A stretch of 63,416 bases of DNA from Solirubrobacterales bacterium. Lineage in GTDB: Bacteria; Actinomycetota; Thermoleophilia; Solirubrobacterales; 70-9. Made by a program: the position numbers and the translations under genes. Within the stretch, counting starts at the first letter, position 1, and each line of letters begins with the position of its first letter. The stretch lies in the NCBI GenBank assembly GCA_040901495.1, contig JBBDYO010000047.1:1-63416 (forward strand), written 5' to 3'. The notes beneath the pieces were generated by a model. That model saw only the letters and a program-made list of their open reading frames with translations, was not told where the DNA came from and made no database searches. Of the stretch, positions 4,783 to 63,416 are shown piece after piece.

Positions 4783-5262
4783 GTGAATAGGAAGACAACT
4801 CAAAGAGGGAACTACGAGTCGGGGTCCGACTACGTGCTCGAGTACGGCGAGCTCCGCTTTGCCTTCAACGAGGAGGACTTCGGACAGCGCGTCGAGCAGG
4901 CCGCTGTCAAATTGGGCTTCGTCCAGCAGGGGCTGAGCCGCGAGGAGCTCGACGATCTGCTCGACCTGGCCGTGAATGGAGAGATCACCGAGCCCAACTC
5001 CGGCCTCGGCGATCACATCAACGAGAGCTGGGAGGACCTCGTTGGGCCCGCCAACCGCAGCCTCGTGCACTGGCTGCGGCGCCTCGTCTTCCGCGGCGCC
5101 TGGCTCGACCAGCGCGTAAAGGAGGGCGAGCTGGACGTCGTCTTCGACGAGCGCACCCAGACCTTCGGCTACGTCCAGCCAGATCGCAGCAGGGAGCTGA
5201 TCGAGCTCTCCAAAGAGCCTTCCTGGCGCCGCATCGCCTACCGGCGCCAAGAGTCTTACTAA
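4783..5262 (+). CDS. hypothetical acidic protein
   Basis: 159-aa ORF with coding-like GC3, no recognisable motif, GTG start with weak RBS. Confidence 0.4.
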   Translation: MNRKTTQRGNYESGSDYVLEYGELRFAFNEEDFGQRVEQAAVKLGFVQQGLSREELDDLLDLAVNGEITEPNSGLGDHINESWEDLVGPANRSLVHWLRRLVFRGAWLDQRVKEGELDVVFDERTQTFGYVQPDRSRELIELSKEPSWRRIAYRRQESY

Positions 5263-5285
5263 GAACCTGCCCTAAGCCGCGACGG

Positions 5286-6137
5286 CTACTCGGGCTTCTC
5301 GACCGCCGCGACCACCGTCAGCGAGCCGCTTCCACCCTGGCTCAGCTTTCCGCTGGCGTCAAACAGCTCCTTGGCCGCGCCGGTGCCACCGTATGCCTCG
5401 GCAAAGCGGCTGAGCGAATCGATCAGGACGATCACGTTTTCTCCGCCATCGGCGCGGCGCACGGCCTGGGCGATCGCGTCGTCGGCGTGCCGAGCCTGGC
5501 CCGCGGCGACGATCTCGGCCTGCGGCACCTCACGCCTCCAGTCGGCCAGCTCCTCGGGGGTGGGGTCGGCCAGAAGCGCAATCGGGTCGGGGCCCTGCGA
5601 CGCCGTGGCCAGCTCGGCCGCGACCTCGCGCAGGAGCGCTGTGCACTCCTCCCTGCTCCCGGCGTAGACGACCGCTTGGCGCCCCGACATCGGCGGCAGC
5701 AGCAGATCGTGGACGCGAACGCCCTTGGGGCGCCGGCCCCAGCGACGGCGACGGCGTTTGCGTTTCGGGCGCCCGGGCTCAGACTGAGGCTGGGAAGCCT
5801 CGGGTTTGGGAGGTGACGGCGGGCTTGCCTCCGGTTTCCTTTGCCTGGTCGATCCGGAACCGCCGCTTTTGGGACCGGAAGACTCTGACCGGCGGCCACC
5901 ACCGCCACCGCCCCCCTGTCCGCCCCGGCTTCTCCTGCGCGGTGGGCGCTGGCGCGCGGGCCCACGGTCGGACGTGGGACCGCGGTCGGACGCTTGCTTC
6001 GGCGCGCCCCCTCCGCCGCCGCTCAGCTTCGCGATCAGCTCTCCGCGGGGCAGCATCCTGTAGCGCTCCACACCCGCATCGGCGGCTAGCGCGTGCAACT
6101 CGGCGAGGGACTTGGACTCCAGCTCAGATTTGTTCAC
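5286..6137 (-). CDS. Rho-like protein: Rho_N domain, Arg/Gly/Pro-rich linker, degenerate truncated RecA-type domain
   Basis: The N-terminus LAELHALAADAGVERYRMLPRGELIAKL matches Rho_N. The C-terminus aligns to the Rho ATPase core (VIVLIDSLSRFAEAY vs Rho VIILLDSITRLARAYN; GSGSLTVVAAV vs GGSLTIIATAL). Where the Walker A should be, the sequence reads AGSREEC. Confidence 0.6.
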   Translation of the reverse strand: MNKSELESKSLAELHALAADAGVERYRMLPRGELIAKLSGGGGGAPKQASDRGPTSDRGPARQRPPRRRSRGGQGGGGGGGRRSESSGPKSGGSGSTRQRKPEASPPSPPKPEASQPQSEPGRPKRKRRRRRWGRRPKGVRVHDLLLPPMSGRQAVVYAGSREECTALLREVAAELATASQGPDPIALLADPTPEELADWRREVPQAEIVAAGQARHADDAIAQAVRRADGGENVIVLIDSLSRFAEAYGGTGAAKELFDASGKLSQGGSGSLTVVAAVEKPE

Positions 6138-8438: not shown

Positions 8439-10328
8439 CTACCAGGCGAAGCGACGGCCGAAGAAGAGAACTCCGCCGAGGGCGAGTGCGGCGGTGCCGA
8501 GCCCGATTCCCAGGGGTACCCACGGGTCCGGGCCAGAGTCCTCGTCGGCCGTGAAGGGAGCCGCCGACGCGGGGGGTTCGGCCGCTGCCGATTCCGGCTC
8601 CTCGCCGACGGGCCCGGTGGTCCCTGTGCCGGGCGCGAAGGGCAGCCCTTTCTCGCCCGGGGATGCGGGCGCGGGGCTCGGGGCGCTCCCCGAACCGGAG
8701 CCGCCGCCGCCCGGGGCCGGCGATTCTGGGGCTTCTTCGGTCCCCGGCGAGACGCCTCCCCCCTGCGGCGTAGGAGCGGGTGTCGGCGACGGCCCCGGGA
8801 GGGGGTTGGGGCCGGGTTGGGTCTTGCGCGGCACCGGGGGAATCGGGAACGCCTCTTCGGCGACCGCGGCAAGCGCCTGGCCGGTCACCCATACCGGGGT
8901 CTGGTCCCTTGAGTCGGAGTACCTGTAGTGGCCGTCTTCCCCCTGGCGCGCCGCGAGGTAGTCGAGGGCGCTCTTGCCCCCCTCGCGAACCGACGCGGGG
9001 TCCTCGCCAACGGCGAGCATCCCCTGAACCGCCCAGGCGGTCGACTGGGAATTGACCTCGCCGGCGCCCCCCAACGGAAACCCACCGCTGGGACGCTGCA
9101 CGCTGCGCAGAAAGGCGAACCCGCGGCGCGCGGCCTTGGTGTCGGGCATCGCCTGCATCACGGCGGCGGTCCCGTCGGCTGTGCTCGGCGACCCGGGGAC
9201 ATCGCCCCATCCACCGTCGTCGTTCTGGATCCGGGCGAGCCATGAGATCGAGACCTTCAACCCGCCGGTCACCCCCGCCGCGCGCAGGGCGAGGACGGCG
9301 AAAGCGGTCGAGCCCGGCCAGCCCTCGAATGACCCGCTCTCTCGGCGGCGCTTTTCAAGCGCCTTGACGAGGTCATGGCCGCCGAAGGACCGCGAATCGA
9401 TCCCGGCTCCCTCGAGGGCGAGGATGGTCCGGGCGAAATCGCCGCTGCTGCTCAGCTCATCGACCTGTCCGCGCAGGAAGTCGACCGGGGTTCGCCCGAG
9501 GCGGGCGACTTCAAGCGGGTTGCGACCCGCCGCCTCGAATCCCAGCATCACCCAGGCGGTGGAGTCGGTACTCGAATCGCGGTCGGGGGAGGAGCCCCAT
9601 CCACCGTCGGCGTTCTGGACGGAGAACAGCCAGCTGGTGGCGCGCTGCTCACCGGCCGCCCGGGCCTGGGCCGGCCATGCCGTCACCACCAGCGCGACTA
9701 CCGCCAGCAGCGCCGTCGCGCCAGCCGGGACACGCCACTCGAACCGCTCCCGGAAGCGCACCAGCATCCGCACCATCGCCGGACCCGCCACAAAGGCGAG
9801 GATAGCGTTGCCGATCGCGTGGGCCAAGTCGAACGGCACCGCGCGCGACTCCAGGACGAGGAATCGCTCCATTGAGAGATCGCCGCCGTAGGTGGCCATC
9901 AAGGAGAAGTTCAGCAGAGCACCGTAGGCGATTCCGGCGAGCCCGCAGACAACGGCCAGCGTGAGGCGCCCGGGGGTGCGACCGCGGCGCGCCAGCGCGG
10001 CGCCCAAGATCCCGCAGAGGCCCCAGCCGGCCATCTGCCAGGGCGTCCAGGGGCCCTGCCCAAACCAGAAGTTCGAGACCAGCGCGGCCAGCGCCCCGAC
10101 AGCGAACCCCGGCGCGCCGCCGAGCGCGATGCCGGCGAAGATGACGATGTCGGTGGTCGGCTTGACGTTGGGAAAGGCGGCAAAGGCGATCCGACCGGCG
10201 ATCGCCAGCGCGGCCAGGACAGCGACCAGCGCAACGACCTGGGAGGTCGGCCGCGAGCGCTCATACCAGGCGAAGCCCGCGATCAAGACGGCGCCGAGGA
10301 TCAGGAAGCTGGCCAGCTCCCAGGACAT
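8439..10328 (-). CDS. ECF transporter S-component-like membrane module fused to a prenyltransferase/squalene-cyclase-repeat (alpha/alpha toroid) domain, Pro-rich linker and C-terminal TM anchor
   Basis: N-terminal ~200 aa with multiple TM helices (NVKPTTDIVIFAG, SNFWFGQGPWTPWQM). Then repeats QNADGGWG, ESGSFEGW, QNDDGGWG, QRPSGGF and RQGEDGHYRY. A Pro/Gly-rich stretch follows, and the final helix ends LFFGRRFAW. Confidence 0.7.
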   Translation of the reverse strand: MSWELASFLILGAVLIAGFAWYERSRPTSQVVALVAVLAALAIAGRIAFAAFPNVKPTTDIVIFAGIALGGAPGFAVGALAALVSNFWFGQGPWTPWQMAGWGLCGILGAALARRGRTPGRLTLAVVCGLAGIAYGALLNFSLMATYGGDLSMERFLVLESRAVPFDLAHAIGNAILAFVAGPAMVRMLVRFRERFEWRVPAGATALLAVVALVVTAWPAQARAAGEQRATSWLFSVQNADGGWGSSPDRDSSTDSTAWVMLGFEAAGRNPLEVARLGRTPVDFLRGQVDELSSSGDFARTILALEGAGIDSRSFGGHDLVKALEKRRRESGSFEGWPGSTAFAVLALRAAGVTGGLKVSISWLARIQNDDGGWGDVPGSPSTADGTAAVMQAMPDTKAARRGFAFLRSVQRPSGGFPLGGAGEVNSQSTAWAVQGMLAVGEDPASVREGGKSALDYLAARQGEDGHYRYSDSRDQTPVWVTGQALAAVAEEAFPIPPVPRKTQPGPNPLPGPSPTPAPTPQGGGVSPGTEEAPESPAPGGGGSGSGSAPSPAPASPGEKGLPFAPGTGTTGPVGEEPESAAAEPPASAAPFTADEDSGPDPWVPLGIGLGTAALALGGVLFFGRRFAW

Positions 10329-12073
10329 CAGGCCCCCGCTCCCGGCTCATCGGGGGCACCGGGCGGCCGGGCCTCTCTGAGGCGCGCCGCGCCCTGCTCG
10401 GGGGTCACGACACCGGGAAGGTCGAGGATCCGGGCCACCTCGGTGGCGAAGTACCAACCGCCGGAGAGGATCTCCGCGGCATCGCCGTCGGCGATCACGA
10501 CCCCGTCGCCGAGGAGGACAACCCGCTCCGCAAAGGCCGCGGCGAACTCGACGTCGTGAGTGGCGACCATCACGCCAGCGCCACCGGCCGCGAAGCGTTC
10601 GATCAAGGCGACCAGGTCGTCCTTGCGGCCGCGATCCATCCCCCTGGTCGGCTCATCGAGGGCGACCAGCCCCGGCAGCTCTTGCTGCTCCATCCTGCCG
10701 GCCAGCGCGATCGCCAGCGCCAGCCTCTGCCGCTCGCCGCCCGAGAGGTCGCGCGGATCGGTATCGAGCGCGTGCTCCAGGCCCACCGTGCGCAAGGCGA
10801 CCAGGCCCAGGGCCCCCGGCAGCTCGTCCTCGACTCGCTCCCGGACCAGGTAGTCGGAGGGGTTCTGGGTCAGCAGCGCGATCCCGCCCGGCGCCTCCGC
10901 CTTGCCCCGGACCGGGCGAACAAGTCGTGCCGCGGCCCGCAGCAGGGTGCTCTTCCCGGCCCCGTTGCGCCCCATCAGCGCGACCCGTTCTCCAGCATGC
11001 ACGTCCAGCTCTATCCCTCGCAGCACGTCCCGGGCGCTCTCGCCGTCGCCAAGCTCGACCCATAGGTCCTTCGTCTCGAGCGCCATCGGATTTAGAGGAG
11101 GCTGGGGGCCTTGGTGGCGCGCTGGGTTTTTCGCCGTGGGCGATGCTTCGTTTGGAGAGTGGTCTGTGCGAAAAACAGGACGCCGCGCGCCACCAAGACC
11201 CCCAGCCTCCTCTCCAGTCGTGGTGCTTCTTCGCGCAAGGGCTTGGCGAGCTTGGCGCACACCGGTCGGGAGCGGGTCTATTCCGGCCAGTGAGAAGAGG
11301 CGGGCGCCCGGGGTCTCCAGCGCCGGGTCCGCGTCGCTTGCCCAGGCGAGGAAGTCGCCGGGGGCGCCGTCGAAGGCGATCGCACCCGAGTCCATCGCGA
11401 TGACGCGGTCGGCGGCGGCGAGGCAGCGCTCCAGCCGGTGCTCGGCGAGGAGCACCGTCACCCCCCACTCCTCGTTGAGGCGGCGCAAGAGCCAGATCAG
11501 CTCATCGCCGGCGACGGGGTCGAGCTGGGAGGTCGGCTCGTCGAGCAGGACCAGCTGCGGGCGCGTGACCAGAGCGGCGGCAAGGGCGACGCGCTGGATC
11601 TCCCCCCCGGAGAGCGTGTCGACCGTTCGTTCGAGGAGCTGGGGGATCGCCAAGGCCAGGGCCACCTCCTCCACCGCTCGCGCGCGAGACGCAGGGGCCT
11701 CGCCGCGCATCTCGAGGGGCAGCTCGATCTCCGCCGCGACGGTGGTCGAGACGACCTGGGTCTCGGGGTCCTGGGCCACATAGCCGACCGCGGTGGCCAG
11801 CTCGCCCGGGCCGCTGGAGATTGCGTCGAGGCCGGCGACGCTGACGCCACCGGAGATCTCCCCGCCGTGGAAGTGGGGAACCAGGCCGCAGGCCGCGCGC
11901 AGCAGGGTCGACTTCCCGCAAGCCGAGCGCCCGGCGAGCAAGGCGAACTCCCCGGCCCCCAACTGGGTCGAGACCCCGGCGAGGGCCGGGCGGGTGGCGT
12001 GCGGATAGCTGTAGGTGAGCTCATCCACCACGAGGGCAGGAGTGGACCGGGACGGAGCGGCGAGCTCAGGCAC
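10328..12073 (-). CDS. ECF transporter ATPase with two fused ABC domains (EcfA-EcfA')
   Basis: Two Walker A motifs (GRSACGKST, GRNGAGKST), two signatures (LSGGEIQR, LSGGERQR) and two Walker B motifs (LLDEPT, ALDEPT). The likely GTG start at 12073 overlaps the ecfT stop. The N-terminal extension to 12454 in the ORF track is out-of-frame junk over ecfT. Confidence 0.8.
   Translation of the reverse strand: MPELAAPSRSTPALVVDELTYSYPHATRPALAGVSTQLGAGEFALLAGRSACGKSTLLRAACGLVPHFHGGEISGGVSVAGLDAISSGPGELATAVGYVAQDPETQVVSTTVAAEIELPLEMRGEAPASRARAVEEVALALAIPQLLERTVDTLSGGEIQRVALAAALVTRPQLVLLDEPTSQLDPVAGDELIWLLRRLNEEWGVTVLLAEHRLERCLAAADRVIAMDSGAIAFDGAPGDFLAWASDADPALETPGARLFSLAGIDPLPTGVRQARQALARRSTTTGEEAGGLGGARRPVFRTDHSPNEASPTAKNPARHQGPQPPLNPMALETKDLWVELGDGESARDVLRGIELDVHAGERVALMGRNGAGKSTLLRAAARLVRPVRGKAEAPGGIALLTQNPSDYLVRERVEDELPGALGLVALRTVGLEHALDTDPRDLSGGERQRLALAIALAGRMEQQELPGLVALDEPTRGMDRGRKDDLVALIERFAAGGAGVMVATHDVEFAAAFAERVVLLGDGVVIADGDAAEILSGGWYFATEVARILDLPGVVTPEQGAARLREARPPGAPDEPGAGA
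11094..11213. repeat. 120-nt palindromic (foldback) element in-frame in the ecfA inter-domain linker
   Basis: 29-nt arms at 11094-11122 and 11185-11213 are reverse complements with one mismatch, which becomes G-U on the coding-strand RNA. An inner 9-nt pair is GTTTTTCGC (11126-11134) and GCGAAAAAC (11168-11176). Confidence 0.85.
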
Positions 12074-12968
12074 GCGACGCCTCTGGCGCGGAGTGGCGGG
12101 CCGGGCGACGACGGAGCGGCGCGAAGCCGCTCGCGACGATGAGCGCACAGATCGCCACGGTCGAGGGGCGGATCCCCACCTCGACGGTCGGGTAGAAGCG
12201 GACGTCGTTGGCGCCCAGCAGCAGGCCGGCGATGGCAACAGCCAGAAGCAGCGCCCCCACCGTGTAGAAGCGCGCGTCATAGCGGGAGCGGGATCGAGCT
12301 CCCTTCGCCCGGGGCGCGTCGAGGCCGTAGCCGCGCAGCTCCAGTGTCGCGGCGACGTCGACGGCACGGTCGAGCGATCCGGCGAGGAGCCGGCGGGCGA
12401 GGGCGGCGCGGCCCAGCGGCGCGGCAGCCGGCCCGCGAAGGCGGCCGGCGTCACGGAGGCGCACCGCGTCCGCGGCGGCCACCGGGACGAGGCGCGAGAC
12501 CAGCGCCGCGGTCAGCGCCGAGCGGCCGGCCAGCGGCCGCAGGGCGCGGAGCACCCGGTCTGGATCGACGCAGGCCGAGTAGACGGCAAAGGCGACCATC
12601 GCGACGGCGGCGCGGAGGCCGATCACCGCACCGGCGACGATCGCCTCAGCGGTGACATCGACCCGGCCGAACAGCGGCCACTCGCCAAGCCGCAGCAGCA
12701 CAGTGTCGCCACGGTCGACGACAAGCGCGTTGACCGCAACGATCAGCACCGCGAGCGTCAGGCCCATCCACAGCGCGGCGCGGACGGCGTCGCGCGCGCC
12801 GGCGTTAAGGCCCGCCAGGACCACCGCGATCCCTGCGGCCACCAGCACAGCCGGGTTCGAGTAGAGAAAGGTCACGGTGACCAGAGCGCCGAGATAGGCG
12901 ACCGCCGCGCCGGGCGACGCCGACTGCAACGGTCCAGGCTTGGGCGTGTAGGCAAATGGCGATCTCAT
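12066..12968 (-). CDS. ECF transporter transmembrane component EcfT (CbiQ family)
   Basis: 300 aa from MRSPFAYTPK, multiple TM helices and Arg-rich coupling-helix region (RSALTAALVSRLVP ... RLRDAGRLRG). Overlaps its neighbours at both ends. Confidence 0.7.
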   Translation of the reverse strand: MRSPFAYTPKPGPLQSASPGAAVAYLGALVTVTFLYSNPAVLVAAGIAVVLAGLNAGARDAVRAALWMGLTLAVLIVAVNALVVDRGDTVLLRLGEWPLFGRVDVTAEAIVAGAVIGLRAAVAMVAFAVYSACVDPDRVLRALRPLAGRSALTAALVSRLVPVAAADAVRLRDAGRLRGPAAAPLGRAALARRLLAGSLDRAVDVAATLELRGYGLDAPRAKGARSRSRYDARFYTVGALLLAVAIAGLLLGANDVRFYPTVEVGIRPSTVAICALIVASGFAPLRRRPARHSAPEASRA

Positions 12969-13882
12969 CGCACCGGAAGCGGTGTCGTCTTCCCACCTTC
13001 GACAGCCACCGCGTAATGGTCCCGCAGGCTGGCGGCGTCGAGCAGCTCGGCGGCGGAGAGCACGCCGCGGGCATCGGCACCGGTGACGATCCAGACCGGA
13101 GGAGCGTCGTATCGCCGCGTCGCGGCGACCAGGCCGGCACCGGGGCCAAACCGACGAACGAACTCGCCGCCTTCGTCGAGGCCTTGCAGTTCGAAGCGCG
13201 ACCCGCGCCGCGCGAAGTCCGCGAACACCCCGCTTTCCTGCGGACCCGACTCGAGCTGCGCGGCCACCGCCACCTCGCGAACCCGCCCCCACGGACCGAC
13301 CAGGACTTCGATCGCGTCCTCCGGCGAGCCGGTAGCCGGAGAGACGCCCGCTCCTTCAAGTCGTTCCCGCACCATGGCGCAAGCCTCCCCACCGCCCCGG
13401 CAATCCACCGTCACCGGGTGCTCCTCTTCGTCGTATCCACCGAGGAACGGCTGGGGCCAGGACCCGACCACCGCCGGCACTCGCGACGCAGCCGACCAGT
13501 CGCGGTAGTCCCACCAGATCGCCTCGCCCCCATGCATTGAGTAGTCCGCCGCGCCCACCGGAGACTCAACCCCGTTGACGTAGAAGAACCAGTCGTAGCG
13601 CCGGCCGGCATGCACGTCTTCTGAGACCCCGTTGATCGACGCCACGAACCCGCCGCCGTAGCGGGTCGAGATCTCGGCGTTGCGATCGAGGACCCGCATC
13701 ACCGTGTCGGACTCGGTGATGTCCTCGGAGATTGGCGCGACAACGTCGGCCGCGCCGAAGTCCCTCGTCACTCTGACTTCGGCCTCACCGACCTCCTCGC
13801 CGGCGCCGAAGCCGCTGCCGGCGGCCGCGAGCGCTGCTCCAAGCAGCGCAATCGCGACCGCCGTAACGCGGCGTGCCTTCAA
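12965..13882 (-). CDS. secreted DUF4430-domain protein (transcobalamin beta-domain-like) with extra C-terminal domain
   Basis: Signal peptide KARRVTAVAIALLGAALAAAGS. Core YGGGFVASINGV ... RYDWFFYVNG typical of DUF4430. TTG start at 13882 preceded by AAGGCAGG; alternative upstream starts up to 13951. Confidence 0.65.
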   Translation of the reverse strand: MKARRVTAVAIALLGAALAAAGSGFGAGEEVGEAEVRVTRDFGAADVVAPISEDITESDTVMRVLDRNAEISTRYGGGFVASINGVSEDVHAGRRYDWFFYVNGVESPVGAADYSMHGGEAIWWDYRDWSAASRVPAVVGSWPQPFLGGYDEEEHPVTVDCRGGGEACAMVRERLEGAGVSPATGSPEDAIEVLVGPWGRVREVAVAAQLESGPQESGVFADFARRGSRFELQGLDEGGEFVRRFGPGAGLVAATRRYDAPPVWIVTGADARGVLSAAELLDAASLRDHYAVAVEGGKTTPLPVR

Positions 13883-13892
13883 GGAACCTGCC

Positions 13893-14630
13893 TTAGGGGC
13901 ACTTACCACCGATGCAGACCGCCTCGCGGTTGGAGGGGATGTCCTTCCCATGCGTGGCGATCAACTCAGTCGGCTTGTTGATGACCACCTCTGTGCCGCC
14001 GTCGTTGCCGGTGAGGCCGGTCCCACCGGTCACCTTGACGCCGGAGGCCGGTCTTTTTTTGCCCGTGTCGTCGTAGGTGAAGACATGGACTTCGAACGGC
14101 TTGCCGGCGACTGCTTTGCCAGGAGCCCTCAGCGAGAGCTCATTGGGGTAAGGGAACCCGGCGAGCGCCCAGAGGACTTCGTCGCCTTTCTTCACCTTCA
14201 CCGACTCGCCCCCGATTTCGGGGTTTTTGTGGTTGACCTTCAGGTACCAGGAGCGTTTCGGGGTGTAAACGGATTTACCGATCCCGCAGAGCCCGAGCCC
14301 GAAGTCGAAGGCGTCGGTGATCAGCAACGGCCGCAGCGCCGCCGTGTACTTGGATGCCTGAATCAGCATGCCGAGCGCGGTCGGGCCTTTGATCGTCAAT
14401 TTGCTGCCGCTGCCGCCGGTCCCGGAGCCGAAGCAATCCGCTTTCGGGCTCGCGACCACCGACGTGGTGGCGGTCCCGAACGAGTCTTCGGCCAGCACCT
14501 TGTTGCCGCTCCCGACGACGCGCAGATCCGCGACCGGCCCTTTGGCCACCGCGATTGCCGCGGTCGAGAGGATGAGAATTGAGGCCAGCACGCACGCGGC
14601 GACCAGCCGATTTGGAATGAGTCTTGGCAT
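13893..14630 (-). CDS. secreted DUF4430-like protein with Ig-like C-terminal domain
   Basis: Signal peptide MPRLIPNRLVAACVLASILILSTAAIAVA. Contains WYLKVNHKNPEIGGESVKVKKGDEVLW, then a beta-rich FEVHVFTYDDTGK domain. First gene after the riboswitch. Confidence 0.55.
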   Translation of the reverse strand: MPRLIPNRLVAACVLASILILSTAAIAVAKGPVADLRVVGSGNKVLAEDSFGTATTSVVASPKADCFGSGTGGSGSKLTIKGPTALGMLIQASKYTAALRPLLITDAFDFGLGLCGIGKSVYTPKRSWYLKVNHKNPEIGGESVKVKKGDEVLWALAGFPYPNELSLRAPGKAVAGKPFEVHVFTYDDTGKKRPASGVKVTGGTGLTGNDGGTEVVINKPTELIATHGKDIPSNREAVCIGGKCP

Positions 14631-14661
14631 TTAAGCCACCCTTTCCTCGAGGGTTGTCATG

Positions 14662-14845
14662 GCTCGGCCGGGGACAGGTCTCCTGGCTTCCGGGGTGATT
14701 GGCCGCACCTTCCCAGGGACTCAGTGTCGCCCCCAGTGGCTGGCGCAACGTGCGCCTGCGACTTCCTTGCCCGGTCACAGTGGCGGGACCGCGCCGGTTT
14801 CTCACCGGACTTCCCTTGACCACCGACCGTATGTACGCGGGTGAG
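14662..14845 (-). promoter_or_regulatory. cobalamin (B12) riboswitch
   Basis: The minus strand reads GGUGGUCAAGGGAAGUCCGGUGAGAAACCGGCGCGGUCCCGCCACUGUGACCGGG ... GCCAGCCACUGGGGGCGACACUGAGUCCCUGGGAAGGUGCGGCC ... GGAAGCCAGGAGACCUGUCCCC. This gives the B12 box (plus coordinates 14672-14688) and two GCCACUG elements in canonical order. Confidence 0.9.
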
Positions 14846-46323: not shown

Positions 46324-46495
46324 CTAAGCGACTATCCGAAAACTCGCGTGTGCGGCTGGTGAGCGCCGGACCGAGCGGGGCAAGGAAGCAGGGAGGCCTA
46401 ATGGCAGCACCATTTGGCCGACCGTGGGACGCCGTCCCCGCGAAGTGTGTCCGCCGCCGCCAGGCGTGCGCGGGGGTTTTCGGATAATCGCTAAG
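46324..46495. repeat. intergenic element bounded by 20-nt imperfect inverted repeats
   Basis: CTAAGCGACTATCCGAAAAC (46324-46343) vs GTTTTCGGATAATCGCTAAG (46476-46495): 18 of 20 positions complementary, 132-nt spacer. Confidence 0.6.
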
Positions 46496-61785: not shown

Positions 61786-63416
61786 CTAGTAGGTCTCGAC
61801 GATCTCGTAAAGCGTCGTGCGCTGGGCTGGGGCGCGGCCGCCGGCGCGCGCGGCCTCGATCAGCTGCTCGGGCTCCAGCCGCACACCGTGCTGGGAGCCG
61901 GCCATCCGCGAGATGTTCTCCTCCATCAGCGTGCCGCCGAGGTCGTTGACCCCCCAGCGCAGCGCCTCGGTAGCGGCCCCAAGGCCCATCTTCACCCAGC
62001 TGGCCTGCAGGTTGGGGATCGTTTTGCCCAGCGCCAGCCGGAACGCCGCCGTGTGCTTGAGGTTCTCATCAGAGGTGATCTCCTCGATCCCGTGGGTGCG
62101 GCCGAGCATCGTGTTGAACGGGATGAAGCTAAGCGGGACGAACTCGGTGATGCCGCCGGTCCGCTCCTGCAGCGAGCGGATCACCCGCATGTGGCGGGCA
62201 AGCTCGCGGGGCTCCTCGATGTGGCCGAACATCACCGTCGAGGTCGAGCGCAGGCCTGCCCGGTGGGAGGCTTCGATGATCTCCACCCAGCGGTCAACCG
62301 GCAGCTTGTTCGGCGAGATCCGCTGGCGGACCCCGTCGTCGAGCACCTCGGCCGCCGTCCCCGGCGTCGACCCCAGCCCGCACTCCTGCAGGTAGGCGAA
62401 GACCTCGTCCGGGCCCTTGCCCGAGCGCTCGCACATGTAGTGGACCTCCATCGGCGAGTAGGCGTGCAGGTGCAACTGCGGCGCGACCTCCTTCGCCAGC
62501 CGCAGCCACTTGCCGTACTCCTCCAGGGTCAGGTCGGGATGGATCCCGCCCTGCATGCAGATCTCCGTCGCGCCGAACTCGACCGCTTCCAGGATCCGCG
62601 CGGCGAAGTCCTCCTCGGAGACCTCGTAGGCGTCGGGGGAGCGGCGCCCCTGCCCGAACCCGCAGAAGGCGCAGCCGACCACGCAGATGTTGGTGAAGTT
62701 GATGTTCCGGTTGACGACGAACGTGACCCGGTCGCCAACCAGCTCAGCCCGCAGCTCATCGGCGGCGGCGCGCATCTCCTCGATCACCTCAGGGCGCGTC
62801 TCGGCAAAGAGCGCGGTCAGCTCGTCCTCACTCAGCTCCTTTCCCTCGCGCCCCTTGGCGATCCCCACGGGGGCAAGGCCCGGGTTAAGCGACTCCTCGC
62901 GACGCCGCCCCGAACCGCTGCGCGGGATGAAGCTCCAGTACTTCAGCTTGATCACGTCAAGGACCCCCTGCTCCATCCACTCGGGGTCCATGTACTGGGG
63001 ATAGACGCAGAGCCTCTCGGTCAGCGCGTACCCCCGCGGCGCCAGGCCCTTCCGCACCTCGTGCGGGCTGGGAAACGCATGCTCGGGAGAGATGTGATCC
63101 CCATTCGCCGACAGCCCGCCAAGGTCCGTCGCCCCCGCTTCCACCAGCTCAGCCCACCAATCCGAGAGATTGGGGGGAATCTGGATGCCGACGTCCGGCA
63201 TCAATCGCTGGCACTCGCCCACCAGCCGCTTGATCTCCTCGATGCCGATCGGGGTTGACCAAGCTGGAGGCTCGAGCAGTTCGCCTTCGGGCGGCTCCAT
63301 GGCCGAGGTCGAAGACCCCCCCGACGGAAACTCTGGGAGCGGCAAAGGCTTCGATCCTCCATTCCCGTTGTACGTACGGTTTTCGGCGGGGGGGTCTTCG
63401 ACCTCGGCCCATCGGC
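61786..63416 (-). CDS. fbiC: bifunctional FO synthase FbiC (CofG C-terminal part plus CofH), 5' end outside the window
   Basis: CofH radical-SAM motif CVVGCAFCGF. CofG-type IQIPPNL and DLGGLSANGDHISPEHAFP motifs. The frame stays open upstream of the TTG at 63345 to the window edge. Confidence 0.8.
   Translation of the reverse strand, partial: RWAEVEDPPAENRTYNGNGGSKPLPLPEFPSGGSSTSAMEPPEGELLEPPAWSTPIGIEEIKRLVGECQRLMPDVGIQIPPNLSDWWAELVEAGATDLGGLSANGDHISPEHAFPSPHEVRKGLAPRGYALTERLCVYPQYMDPEWMEQGVLDVIKLKYWSFIPRSGSGRRREESLNPGLAPVGIAKGREGKELSEDELTALFAETRPEVIEEMRAAADELRAELVGDRVTFVVNRNINFTNICVVGCAFCGFGQGRRSPDAYEVSEEDFAARILEAVEFGATEICMQGGIHPDLTLEEYGKWLRLAKEVAPQLHLHAYSPMEVHYMCERSGKGPDEVFAYLQECGLGSTPGTAAEVLDDGVRQRISPNKLPVDRWVEIIEASHRAGLRSTSTVMFGHIEEPRELARHMRVIRSLQERTGGITEFVPLSFIPFNTMLGRTHGIEEITSDENLKHTAAFRLALGKTIPNLQASWVKMGLGAATEALRWGVNDLGGTLMEENISRMAGSQHGVRLEPEQLIEAARAGGRAPAQRTTLYEIVETY
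63301..63409. repeat. 109-nt palindromic element inside the fbiC coding sequence
   Basis: GGCCGAGGTCGAAGACCCCCCC (63301-63322) is the exact reverse complement of 63388-63409, with a 65-nt lower-GC spacer. Confidence 0.8.

Follow-up and report, generated by a model that had tools for sequence, protein, structure and literature searches.

A dispersed palindromic repeat family of Solirubrobacterales with an in-frame copy in the linker of a fused ECF-transporter ATPase

Introduction

Bacterial genomes carry several classes of small palindromic repeat. REP and REPIN sequences are abundant, short GC-rich hairpins with a conserved recognition core; many occupy gaps between convergent genes or 3' ends, and they are retained at orthologous positions. 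A REP is by definition extragenic, a REPIN is a doublet of ~25-nt REPs, and both REP/BIME and REPIN-RAYT systems are passed on vertically for long periods. Imperfect inverted repeats are also subject to quasi-palindrome templated mutagenesis, known from E. coli and phage T4, in which intrastrand template switching makes them perfect. Rickettsia palindromic elements (RPEs) occur in frame in unrelated genes, where the short peptides that they add fall at positions the protein structure can tolerate; neither a transposase nor a target-site duplication is known for them (PMC10969869). Some miniature inverted-repeat elements (MITEs) likewise form in-frame fusions with host ORFs or are terminator-like (PMC10969869).

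Here, we analysed a 63,416-nucleotide stretch of DNA from a Solirubrobacterales bacterium (hereafter, the window) in which a 120-nt near-perfect palindrome lies inside the reading frame of ecfA-ecfA'. We found that this element is one copy of a previously undescribed palindromic repeat family that litters the genomes of Solirubrobacterales, an order of soil actinobacteria. With a probability of about 0.7, we read it as an RPE/REP-type repeat carried as a passenger in a protein linker rather than as a dedicated regulator of the two nucleotide-binding domains (NBDs).

Results

The palindrome lies on the minus strand at 11094-11213. Its host gene adjoins an EcfT (CbiQ) gene and an S-component gene, and the presence of two ABC_tran domains in one polypeptide identifies the product as a fused ECF-transporter ATPase. 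The features of the locus are as follows, with columns referring to alignment A1.

10328-12040, minus strand: gene for the fused EcfA-EcfA' (570 aa), probably starting with the GTG at 12040; alignment with orthologs of 566-610 aa begins at residue 1
~11528-11980, minus strand: NBD1, ABC_tran (Pfam)
~10541-11008, minus strand: NBD2, ABC_tran (Pfam)
14656-14839, minus strand: cobalamin riboswitch at the operon head (RF00174, 76.9 bits); context, outside the element
11094-11213, minus strand: complete palindromic repeat of the fam1 type, residues ~277-316 of the 570-aa EcfA-EcfA'; length and anatomy match the dispersed family
11185-11213, minus strand: 5' outer arm, coding strand, AGAGGAGGCTGGGGGTCTTGGTGGCGCGC; fast-evolving outer stem, perfectly paired; columns 5-33
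11094-11122, minus strand: 3' outer arm, coding strand, GCGCGCCACCAAGGCCCCCAGCCTCCTCT; columns 96-124
11168-11186, minus strand: conserved 5' core GCGGCGTCCTGTTTTTCGC, holding the inner-helix strand GTTTTTCGC at 11168-11176; columns 32-50
11121-11135, minus strand: conserved 3' core GGCGAAAAACCCAGC, holding the inner-helix strand GCGAAAAAC at 11126-11134; columns 83-97, invariant
11136-11167, minus strand: variable centre, 32 nt, ACAGACCACTCTCC..., asymmetric; between-species identity 0.59

The first-pass annotation of this DNA had described 29-nt arms with a single mismatch at 11094-11122 and 11185-11213, a G-U pair at that mismatch on the coding-strand RNA, and an inner 9-bp pair. We recovered the arms (0 matches expected in 100 shuffles), the U·G pair (columns 20/109) and the inner pair (11126-11134 with 11168-11176), and a repeat search extended the arms to 34 nt at 91% identity (11094-11127 and 11180-11213). 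Because the centre is asymmetric, the orientation of an element can be defined. The start of the window centre, ACAGACCACTC, was also found in the off-site copies L098 and L102. Columns 32-50 were all but one invariant among eight species in both orientations, the exception being a T at column 40 in L014.

The element is 120 nt long and has no stop in the ecfA frame, as had been claimed. Its first base is the third of a GGA codon and its last base the second of a CTA codon, which means that 41 codons are touched. The peptide read from it is GEEAGGLGGARRPVFRTDHSPNEASPTAKNPARHQGPQPPL. Exact excision restores ...TTG|NPM..., the short-linker junction that the annotation had predicted. The ATG at 11086-11084, proposed as the Met codon of the second NBD, is real, but Met is absent there in most orthologs; it is thus not a conserved start of the second NBD.

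RNA folding, which the annotation had suggested, gave -81.5 kcal/mol for the coding strand (z = -8.65, with 0/200 shuffles as stable) and -88.7 kcal/mol for the opposite strand (z = -7.5). No U-tract follows the stem on either strand: past the 3' arm, the coding strand reads AAAUCCGAUGGCG and the opposite strand CCAGUCGUGG. We therefore rejected an intrinsic (Rho-independent) terminator, for which the hairpin is present but the U-run is absent on both strands. At the gathering threshold, Rfam returned only the Cbl riboswitch and tRNAs in the window, and a relaxed scan (E≤1) of L036, which bears four copies, gave nothing credible. No second copy was found in the 63-kb window at ≤3 mismatches; the window hairpins at 63301-63409 and 46324-46495 were treated as other families, their GAAAAC/GTTTTC motif order being reversed relative to the element.

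In an AlphaFold2 model, both NBDs fold and linker residues 267-315 are coil with pLDDT<50, and the ~40 encoded residues are accordingly predicted to form a disordered spacer. Alignment of orthologs, also proposed in the first-pass annotation, indicated that these residues are specific to the lineage: the linker spans 36-49 aa in the fused EcfA proteins of outgroups, compared with 65-77 aa where the element is present. Distant EcfA homologs are also fused and lack the insert, which rules out, for the ecfA gene, an origin of the EcfA-EcfA' fusion through the element.

To search for further copies, we used the window core pattern GCGTCYTGTTTTTCGC - 25-45 nt - GCGAAAAACCCAG, which the window element matches exactly. 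The pattern GCGTCYTGTTTTTCGC-N-GCGAAAAACCCAG gave at least 126 matches in soil metagenome contigs, at least 125 of them away from ecfA, which disposes of the possibility, raised in the first-pass annotation, that no other copies exist. Among the matches listed, the dispersed copies had an anatomy identical to that of the window element, with a median length of 120 nt and 24 outer pairs. The family has an outer stem of ~24-29 bp, a conserved asymmetric core and a variable centre of 32-38 nt; the window element, with a 29-bp stem and 120 nt, shows the long near-perfect outer stem round the core and the total length of ~115-123 nt that define a member. Flanking direct repeats of 2-8 nt were no commoner than in a shifted control among the 123 copies listed, and none was visible at ecfA. 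Since target-site duplications are lacking, the element is foldback/MITE-like rather than a MITE proper.

In 1.5 Mb of ecfA neighbourhoods, a sister subfamily with the standard core contributed 36 copies, mostly in gaps between convergent stop codons, and fam1 matches occurred at the ecfA site only. An ecfA-specific fam1 core, which we considered, was overturned by the metagenome scan. A location of all members between convergent genes is true of the standard-core subfamily, but fam1 copies are mostly tandem or intragenic, with many unclear cases.

Among the fam1 matches listed, 14 out of 116 (~12%) lie in coding-like ORFs, so the in-frame tolerance claimed for the ecfA linker extends to unrelated real genes. 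The in-frame copies typically sit at domain junctions, the Pfam arrangements being GATase|element|Anth_synt_I_N, DHODB_Fe-S_bind|element|DHO_dh and UvrD-helicase|element|UvrD_C; MMPL and Wzy_C genes are further hosts. On average, 5.0 of the six frames are open per copy (2.8 in shuffles), and all six are open in 34% of copies, compared with 1% of shuffles. Element DNA is read in at least four of the six frames, giving RRPVFR..AKNPA, LGFSPG..GEKQDAA, AGFFA..GRKTGRR and SCFSP..GEKPSK. On our reading, the element is tolerated because the family is nearly stop-free in all six frames and because its ~40 encoded residues make a disordered, sequence-indifferent spacer.

Across Solirubrobacterales, a hairpin element is present at the same linker site in about 60 of 80 species (a long linker at 62 of 79 species loci, ~78%), and is thus not a recent private insertion. 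Every one of the 62 long linkers is open in frame and encodes a single long hairpin, with folding energies of -93 to -136 kcal/mol over ~200 nt. The linker peptides vary with frame and orientation although the underlying DNA is homologous. The tree calls for ~13 switches between long and short linkers, throughout which the operon stayed intact, and some short linkers keep arm-encoded residues as remnants. Operon gene order is kept in L001 and L003. Nested outer palindrome layers also occur.

Occupancy at ecfA exceeds that of one intergenic site examined, where it is roughly 17/55. A second in-frame site lies in the linker of the neighbouring S-component gene, and hairpins also occur in various species at the ecfT/ecfA and ecfA/S cistron junctions of the same operon. 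A filter requiring 60 coding codons on each side returned no further intragenic hairpins, as it is blind to copies near gene ends; those in the S gene and at the junctions emerged by direct inspection. The high ecfA occupancy and the hairpins at other cistron junctions are compatible with some operon-level benefit.

Orientation at the ecfA site follows no phylogenetic pattern. The elements of L001 and L014 align gap-free to the window element only once reverse-complemented, and orientation required 14 Fitch changes over 45 tips, compared with 13.2 ± 1.3 for shuffled labels. One explanation is an insertion hotspot, at which independent and fairly recent insertions or replacements from active master copies would account for both the random orientation and the intact cores. 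The window fam1 copy does stand apart from other fam1 species on the EcfA tree, one intergenic junction has its gap filled by three unrelated hairpin families in different species, and the nested layers also fit repeated insertion. However, arm family changed only three times on the same tree, and flipped copies, once re-oriented, were as similar to their relatives as unflipped copies, so that similarity tracks relatedness. Indeed, the sister species L014 and L055, of opposite orientation, have outer-stem and loop sequence in common. The fam2 core variant, seen at ecfA in both orientations, was not found elsewhere in the 1.5 Mb sampled, and the 3' boundary of the element falls at the same codon ±1 in fam1 and fam2. 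We regard a hotspot as the strongest competitor to in-place inversion of a resident passenger, though an unlikely one.

Ten multi-member clusters at 90% identity each had a single orientation, and in these limited data we saw no sign of flipping within species; phase variation inside populations was rejected on this ground. Intergenic orthologous copies have one orientation (17 out of 17), whereas the ecfA copy flips, a difference that a uniform neutral inversion rate does not predict.

The core is far more conserved than the rest of the element. Over 34 nt, its identity was 0.99, compared with 0.51 at 4-fold sites and 0.93 at second codon positions in the same species, and the arms were 0.70 identical between species. 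Decay would be expected of a purely neutral passenger, and the core must therefore be under some constraint or be homogenised. A host-level DNA function could do so: the core might be bound or acted on by a nucleoid protein, a topoisomerase or a domesticated REP-associated (RAYT-like) enzyme, in which case the ecfA copy would be retained for that function and the peptide would still be a by-product. Such a function would fit the conservation of the core in both orientations, its presence in at least 125 dispersed copies, the persistence of orthologous intergenic copies with compensatory stems in many species and, by analogy, the long vertical persistence of REP/BIME and REPIN-RAYT systems. Against it, no factor was found (tblastn of 2.4 Mb of fragmentary sequence with E. 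coli RayT and IS200 TnpA, which are approximate and distant queries, gave no Y1/RAYT transposase match), copies are often lost with remnants left, and the occupation of one junction by unrelated hairpin families looks opportunistic. On balance, we consider a retained DNA site rather doubtful.

A more far-reaching version, to which we give still less credence, is that a lineage-specific DNA-processing factor recognises the core, keeps cores intact and inverts or re-templates the element in place. In-frame copies would then be rapidly flipping linker cassettes that exchange the peptide linking two domains, and the family could be an agent of linker creation and possibly of gene fusion.

The outer stem changes quickly and stays paired. 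Among the eight species of A1, 16 of the 29 outer pairs had changed on both sides, so the stem is kept by compensatory change, a lack of which the first-pass annotation would have counted against its proposal; outer-pair cells were paired in 95% of cases, compared with 35-53% in slid controls. On the coding strand, we counted, within solid helices only, 679 Watson-Crick pairs (~97%), 7 G·T, 5 A·C and 6 transversion mismatches, the mismatch counts being small. G·U thus showed no excess over A·C on the mRNA strand, with wobble pairs at ~1%, and intergenic copies had the same mismatch pattern as the ecfA copies.

These data bear on the alternative offered in the first-pass annotation, a selected mRNA hairpin that tunes the two NBDs. 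Such a hairpin might pause translation so that NBD1 folds co-translationally, govern the stability of the mRNA or its cleavage by RNase III/E, or attenuate the B12-regulated operon in a translation-dependent manner. The very strong fold, the high occupancy across species, the compensatory substitutions, and the hairpins at the cistron junctions and in the S-gene linker would all suit selection on the mRNA. But Watson-Crick stems without a G·U excess, together with an orientation that is phylogenetically random despite the asymmetric core and centre, argue against an ecfA-specific mRNA hairpin, as do the ~13 linker-length changes in an intact operon, the absence of a U-tract on either strand and of a conserved restart codon, and the occurrence of the same family in unrelated genes and intergenic sites. 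We therefore disfavour this alternative as improbable.

We give a negligible probability to an artefact of sequencing or assembly, for instance a foldback chimera. Amplified or long-read data can contain artefactual palindromes, and nothing specific points to one here, but homologous sequence occupies the same site in dozens of independent assemblies from different projects and assembly sources, with the reading frame preserved in every case.

Discussion

The first-pass annotation's main proposal, a foldback/MITE-like element tolerated in a protein linker, is supported by the copies elsewhere, the in-frame hosts, the lineage specificity of the insert and the compensatory stem, and none of the outcomes that the annotation listed as refuting it was observed. 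As we picture the passenger repeat, the EcfA-EcfA' fusion predated it: a family member would have entered the linker between the two ATPase domains, which is flexible by nature, and related copies would have come to occupy that site in most descendants. The mismatch spectra, with their small counts, suggest that pairing in the stem is upheld by a DNA-level process, in which one arm of the quasi-palindrome templates correction of the other within the same strand, rather than by selection on ecfA mRNA. The changes of orientation would be in-situ inversions across the arms. The near-invariant core may reflect a family-wide constraint, through a DNA-binding or recombination factor or through homogenisation among copies, rather than a function specific to ecfA.

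In-frame selfish palindromes are textbook in Rickettsia and rarely documented elsewhere; this family appears to be a second large natural example, and its hosts are abundant, mostly uncultured, high-GC soil actinobacteria. The comparative data are unusually clean: one in-frame site can be followed through 80 species, with both orientations, several frames and repeated loss, and with core conservation far above that of second codon positions. The family thus offers a tractable system for asking whether templated correction or selection maintains palindromes, and how proteins take up junk-encoded linkers. In practice, the elements inflate and diversify linkers, and in Solirubrobacterales MAGs they can lead gene calling, the placing of domain boundaries and alignment astray. 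Should the core be recognised by a processing factor as speculated above, six-frame openness and the preference for junctions (EcfA|EcfA', PabA|PabB-type, PyrK-like|PyrD, ecfT/ecfA and ecfA/S) would point to a general route of linker creation and possibly of gene fusion.

How does the family compare with known systems? With MITEs (Correia/CREE, ERIC, Nezha, BOX/RUP and SPRITE), it shares a small, non-autonomous repeat with inverted-repeat ends. Terminal inverted repeats are present only trivially, however, as the inverted repeat runs through the element from end to end; it also has no target-site duplication, and no parent IS with matching ends was identified.

The abundance of hairpins, a core conserved above neutral expectation and positions between convergent genes recall REP/BIME and REPIN sequences. 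By contrast with these, the window copy and ~12% of the listed fam1 copies are intragenic, and it is the sister subfamily that is extragenic, between convergent genes. Quasi-palindrome templated mutagenesis, which would change both arms at once and yield near-perfect Watson-Crick pairing without passing through wobble pairs, fits the stems: these are 97% Watson-Crick, G·T, A·C and transversion mismatches being rare to much the same degree, although the arms are only 0.70 identical between species. It is a mutational mechanism rather than an element family, and it has probably acted here.

The closest likeness is to RPEs, as the first-pass annotation had suggested, and as an analogy it stands: both are dispersed palindromes of ~100-150 bp with an in-frame intragenic fraction in unrelated genes and neither a known transposase nor a target-site duplication, and here 12% lie in ORFs at domain junctions, with an insert predicted to be disordered. 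The differences are also clear. RPE hosts are AT-rich, obligate intracellular Alphaproteobacteria, whereas ours are high-GC, free-living soil Actinomycetota, and families are defined separately per lineage. The elements described here have near-perfect stems of ~25-29 bp, can be read in as many as six frames and are found either way round at one site, and they do not encode the single conserved peptide per family. We therefore do not claim RPE membership; the resemblance would be a functional analogy, with the family set apart by its lineage, Solirubrobacterales, rather than by sequence comparison.

The ecfA element and its host operon

The palindrome in the ecfA linker is a real, well-supported feature of the window.

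Operon and element in the window
8439-14839, minus strand: operon, in the order riboswitch, two DUF4430 genes, CbiQ/EcfT, fused EcfA-EcfA', S-component fusion
14656-14839, minus strand: cobalamin riboswitch at the operon head
11213→11094, minus strand: element in coding-strand order, AGAGGAGGCTGGGGGTCTTGGTGGCGCGC – GGCGTCCT – GTTTTTCGC – 33 nt – GCGAAAAAC – CCA – GCGCGCCACCAAGGCCCCCAGCCTCCTCT

The first-pass annotation had described the element accurately. We recovered complementary 29-nt arms with a single U·G exception, an exactly paired inner 9-bp helix and an open frame. Its 120 nt run without a stop through the reading frame that encodes a 570-aa protein carrying two ABC_tran domains, although the codons touched number 41 rather than the 40 claimed. 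The downstream ATG at the second nucleotide-binding domain (NBD) is present but not conserved. Predicted RNA folding energies were -81.5 kcal/mol (z = -8.65) for the mRNA strand and -88.7 kcal/mol (z = -7.5) for the opposite strand. Shuffled sequence is expected to yield the arm pattern 0 times, and we found no second copy in the 63-kb window at up to 3 mismatches. In an AlphaFold2 model of EcfA-EcfA', both NBDs were folded, with residues 267-315 as low-confidence coil.

The operon is unusual for a B12-riboswitch-controlled ECF transporter in its two upstream DUF4430 proteins and its S-component fusion, an arrangement kept in two relatives (L001 and L003; L numbers up to L083 denote relatives' ecfA loci, higher ones metagenome loci). 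According to Pfam, the S-component gene downstream of ecfA is fused to a squalene-cyclase/prenyltransferase-like domain; this partner resembles the alpha-alpha toroid of squalene-hopene cyclases and prenyltransferases and carries a C-terminal TM anchor.

The same site in relatives

Nearly all of the 120 best EcfA homologs (74-82% identity; Solirubrobacterales wherever named) had a segment of ~40 extra residues at exactly this linker position, with peptides sorting into discrete classes. We compared 80 ecfA loci with 10-kb flanks at the species level. In 62 loci the PxGVR…LWV span measured ~61-81 aa, and in another 17 it measured 41-56 aa; it was free of stops in every locus and contained one single long hairpin in each long linker. 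The peptide classes proved to be the same DNA in different readings. For example, CCCCCTCCGAACGGCTTGTACTT encodes TPSERLVL in one frame and DPLRTACTFS in another, and reverse-complementing the window's RRPVFR…AKNPA element gives the GALGFSP…GEKQDAA peptide. Two arm families, fam1 (that of the window) and fam2, each occurred in both orientations relative to ecfA.

Once L001 and L014 had been reverse-complemented, eight fam1 copies aligned without gaps over 128 columns, including the asymmetric core and the centre. Both sides had changed in 16 of the 29 outer-stem pairs, and 95% of cells were paired, against 35-53% in slid controls. Some short linkers (e.g., L029, L039 and L047) retained only arm-encoded residues, the expected outcome of deletion between arms. 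Outgroup homologs (35-60% identity) were also fused, with spans of 36-49 aa; thus, an old fusion has acquired a clade-specific insert.

Two ecfA homologs (P0066 and P0131) had linkers of double length, ~105 aa, apparently comprising one and a half elements (…RRPVFRT…AKNPASGRG…PPRRQAPPADAPGEKPSNRERPPTRRQDPP), which may reflect tandem or nested insertion. Some elements also carried an extra outer palindrome layer, CTCGGGCGGGTGGCG … CGACAGGACCCGCCC (ecfA linkers L010, L018, L043, L082, L012, L016, L019 and L025; also L045, L047, L056 and L071; metagenome L086, L087 and L109). This layer persists alone in some short linkers and borders dispersed fam1 copies, suggesting that the palindromes nest or grow, or that a longer variant of ~150 nt exists.

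A dispersed, ORF-compatible family

We searched 1.56 Mb of ecfA loci with the elements using BLAST and nhmmer. A sister subfamily with core GGAGCGTCTTGTACTTTTTCG…CGAAAAAGTTAAGCGG had 36 strong off-site copies there, most of them exactly filling the gap between convergent stop codons; they reappear at syntenic positions in a single orientation, and orthologous copies differ by compensatory changes. A census of hairpins irrespective of family counted 115 whose perfect stem was 16 bp or longer across 1.53 Mb, compared with 1 in shuffled sequence. Dispersal of the window's own subfamily was tested decisively by scanning metagenome contigs with GCGTCYTGTTTTTCGC-N25-45-GCGAAAAACCCAG. The scan returned at least 126 matches in at least 120 loci; 125 of the 126 listed lay away from ecfA, so at least 125 further copies exist. 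Several single contigs held 2-3 copies, and some matched known Solirubrobacterales contigs by name or length; Ga0207676_10000031, at 215,877 bp, is as long as the longest contig recorded for the P0056/P0140 ecfA cluster. The dispersed copies (median 120 nt, about 24 outer pairs) share the window element's anatomy, often including the ACAGACCACTC start of the centre, and showed no target-site duplication.

Among fam1 copies with enough flank, 14 of 116 lay inside coding-like ORFs, where the same motif peptides appeared in at least four frame/orientation combinations. Pfam identified the hosts as real genes, including MMPL, Wzy_C and radical-SAM proteins and those below.

In-frame insert positions (Pfam)
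GATase 37-219 / element 224-267 / Anth_synt_I_N 279-418
DHODB_Fe-S_bind 488-522 / element 524-568 / DHO_dh 572-855
UvrD-helicase / element ~243-285 / UvrD_C (two contigs)

Copies had a mean of 5.0 open frames out of six (2.8 in shuffled sequence, 3.9 in flanking DNA), and all six were open in 34% (1% and 5%, respectively). The family is intrinsically ORF-compatible.

Turnover and other hairpins

Occupancy of an orthologous convergent-gene junction varied across species, indicating gain, loss and turnover.

Convergent junction, ~16.6-17.0 kb in L004-L083
Window equivalent, ~5262-5286: empty
Some species: empty 0-20-nt gap
Some species: standard-core element (sister subfamily), always in one orientation
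L007, L048, L061, L078: unrelated 93-nt hairpin
L014, L040: unrelated I3-like hairpin
L050, L069, L055: half or arm remnants

The element's outer stem reaches into the adjacent stop codon here and covaries with it (TAG…CTA versus TAA…TTA).

Within the ecfA operon, an in-frame fam2-like hairpin occupied the low-complexity (Pro/Gly-rich) linker of the S-component/toroid protein in four species, before the C-terminal TM anchor (L017 13388-13505; L030 13391-13508; L075 13368-13483; L037 14905-15022). The equivalent stretch of the window (about 8700-8810) shows no more than a weak inverted repeat (8704-8722 / 8787-8805), perhaps left over from a decayed hairpin. Perfect palindromes of ~50 nt with TATA/GTATG-like centres lie at the ecfT/ecfA junction, over the ecfT stop and likely ecfA start, and others at the ecfA/S junction are translated as the EcfA C-terminal tail (L027, L059, L063, L070 and L076, ~9.88-9.98 kb; L024, L046, L033 and L026, ~11.59-11.70 kb). 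Taking junction and linker hairpins together, every cistron or domain junction of the operon is occupied in some species.

Other hairpins in the window
63301-63409: 31-nt arms at 94%, 23-bp perfect stem, 47-63 nt between arms; similar elements at L026 1225-1306, L048 854-929, L079 19139-19224
46324-46495: imperfect, about 170 nt, 36-nt arms at 78%, -107 kcal/mol; homologs at L063 6988-7149, L065 6934-7097

The hairpin at the extreme window end has CGAAAAC/GTTTYCG-like motifs in reversed order relative to the ecfA element and probably belongs to a different hairpin-repeat family. The imperfect one has the architecture of the convergent-gap elements in L014 and L040 (about 16.67-16.79 kb) and had no Rfam match at the gathering threshold; it represents a third dispersed structured-repeat family.

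Maintenance of the palindrome

Selection for an ecfA-specific mRNA device should make wobble pairs common and skewed to the sense strand. In the solid helices of 60 linker copies, Watson-Crick pairs instead numbered 679, against 7 G·T and 5 A·C pairings and 6 transversion mismatches, and intergenic copies showed the same pattern. On an EcfA tree built with the linker left out, arm family changed 3 times, long/short linker state 13 times, and orientation 14 times among 45 tips, no less often than with shuffled labels (13.2 ± 1.3). We found neither a U-tract 3' of the stem nor an Rfam match for the element. The mismatch spectrum, orientation, state changes and these two absences argue against an ecfA-specific RNA device, and we favour maintenance of the palindrome at the DNA level, where templated correction would preserve it.

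No orientation switch occurred within ten 90%-identity clusters, each being uniform; flipping thus looks like an evolutionary process rather than phase variation. Re-oriented flipped copies were as similar to relatives as unflipped ones, and sister species with opposite orientations had stem and loop sequence in common, which favours in-situ inversion. By contrast with the flipping ecfA copy, intergenic orthologous copies hardly ever flip (17/17 in the same orientation at one site).

Across eight fam1 species, identity reached 0.99 in the 34-nt core in both orientations. It was 0.93 at second codon positions, 0.70 in the outer stem and 0.59 in the element centre, and fell to 0.51 at 4-fold degenerate sites in the flanking ecfA sequence. 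The core must therefore be under constraint or undergo continual homogenisation. The most obvious candidate would be a trans-acting factor; the sole search for one, a weak tblastn for Y1 transposases over 2.4 Mb, found none. Two questions are of real interest: how the core stays invariant, and why it is the in-frame copy that flips.

Comparison with known systems

In our literature search, no description of such repeats from Solirubrobacterales turned up. The family differs from MITEs in lacking target-site duplications. It resembles REP/REPIN sequences in having a conserved core, in placing intergenic copies where convergent genes meet and in persisting over long periods, although, unlike REPs, it is not restricted to extragenic sites. 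Rickettsia palindromic elements (RPEs) are palindromic repeats whose in-frame insertions supply peptides that the host proteins tolerate (PMC10969869). Given the dispersed copies, in-frame hosts and clade-specific insert, the RPE-like reading in the first-pass annotation was essentially right: functionally, the Solirubrobacterales repeats do the same. They are not members of the RPE families, from which their different host lineage and the lack of a single encoded peptide set them apart.
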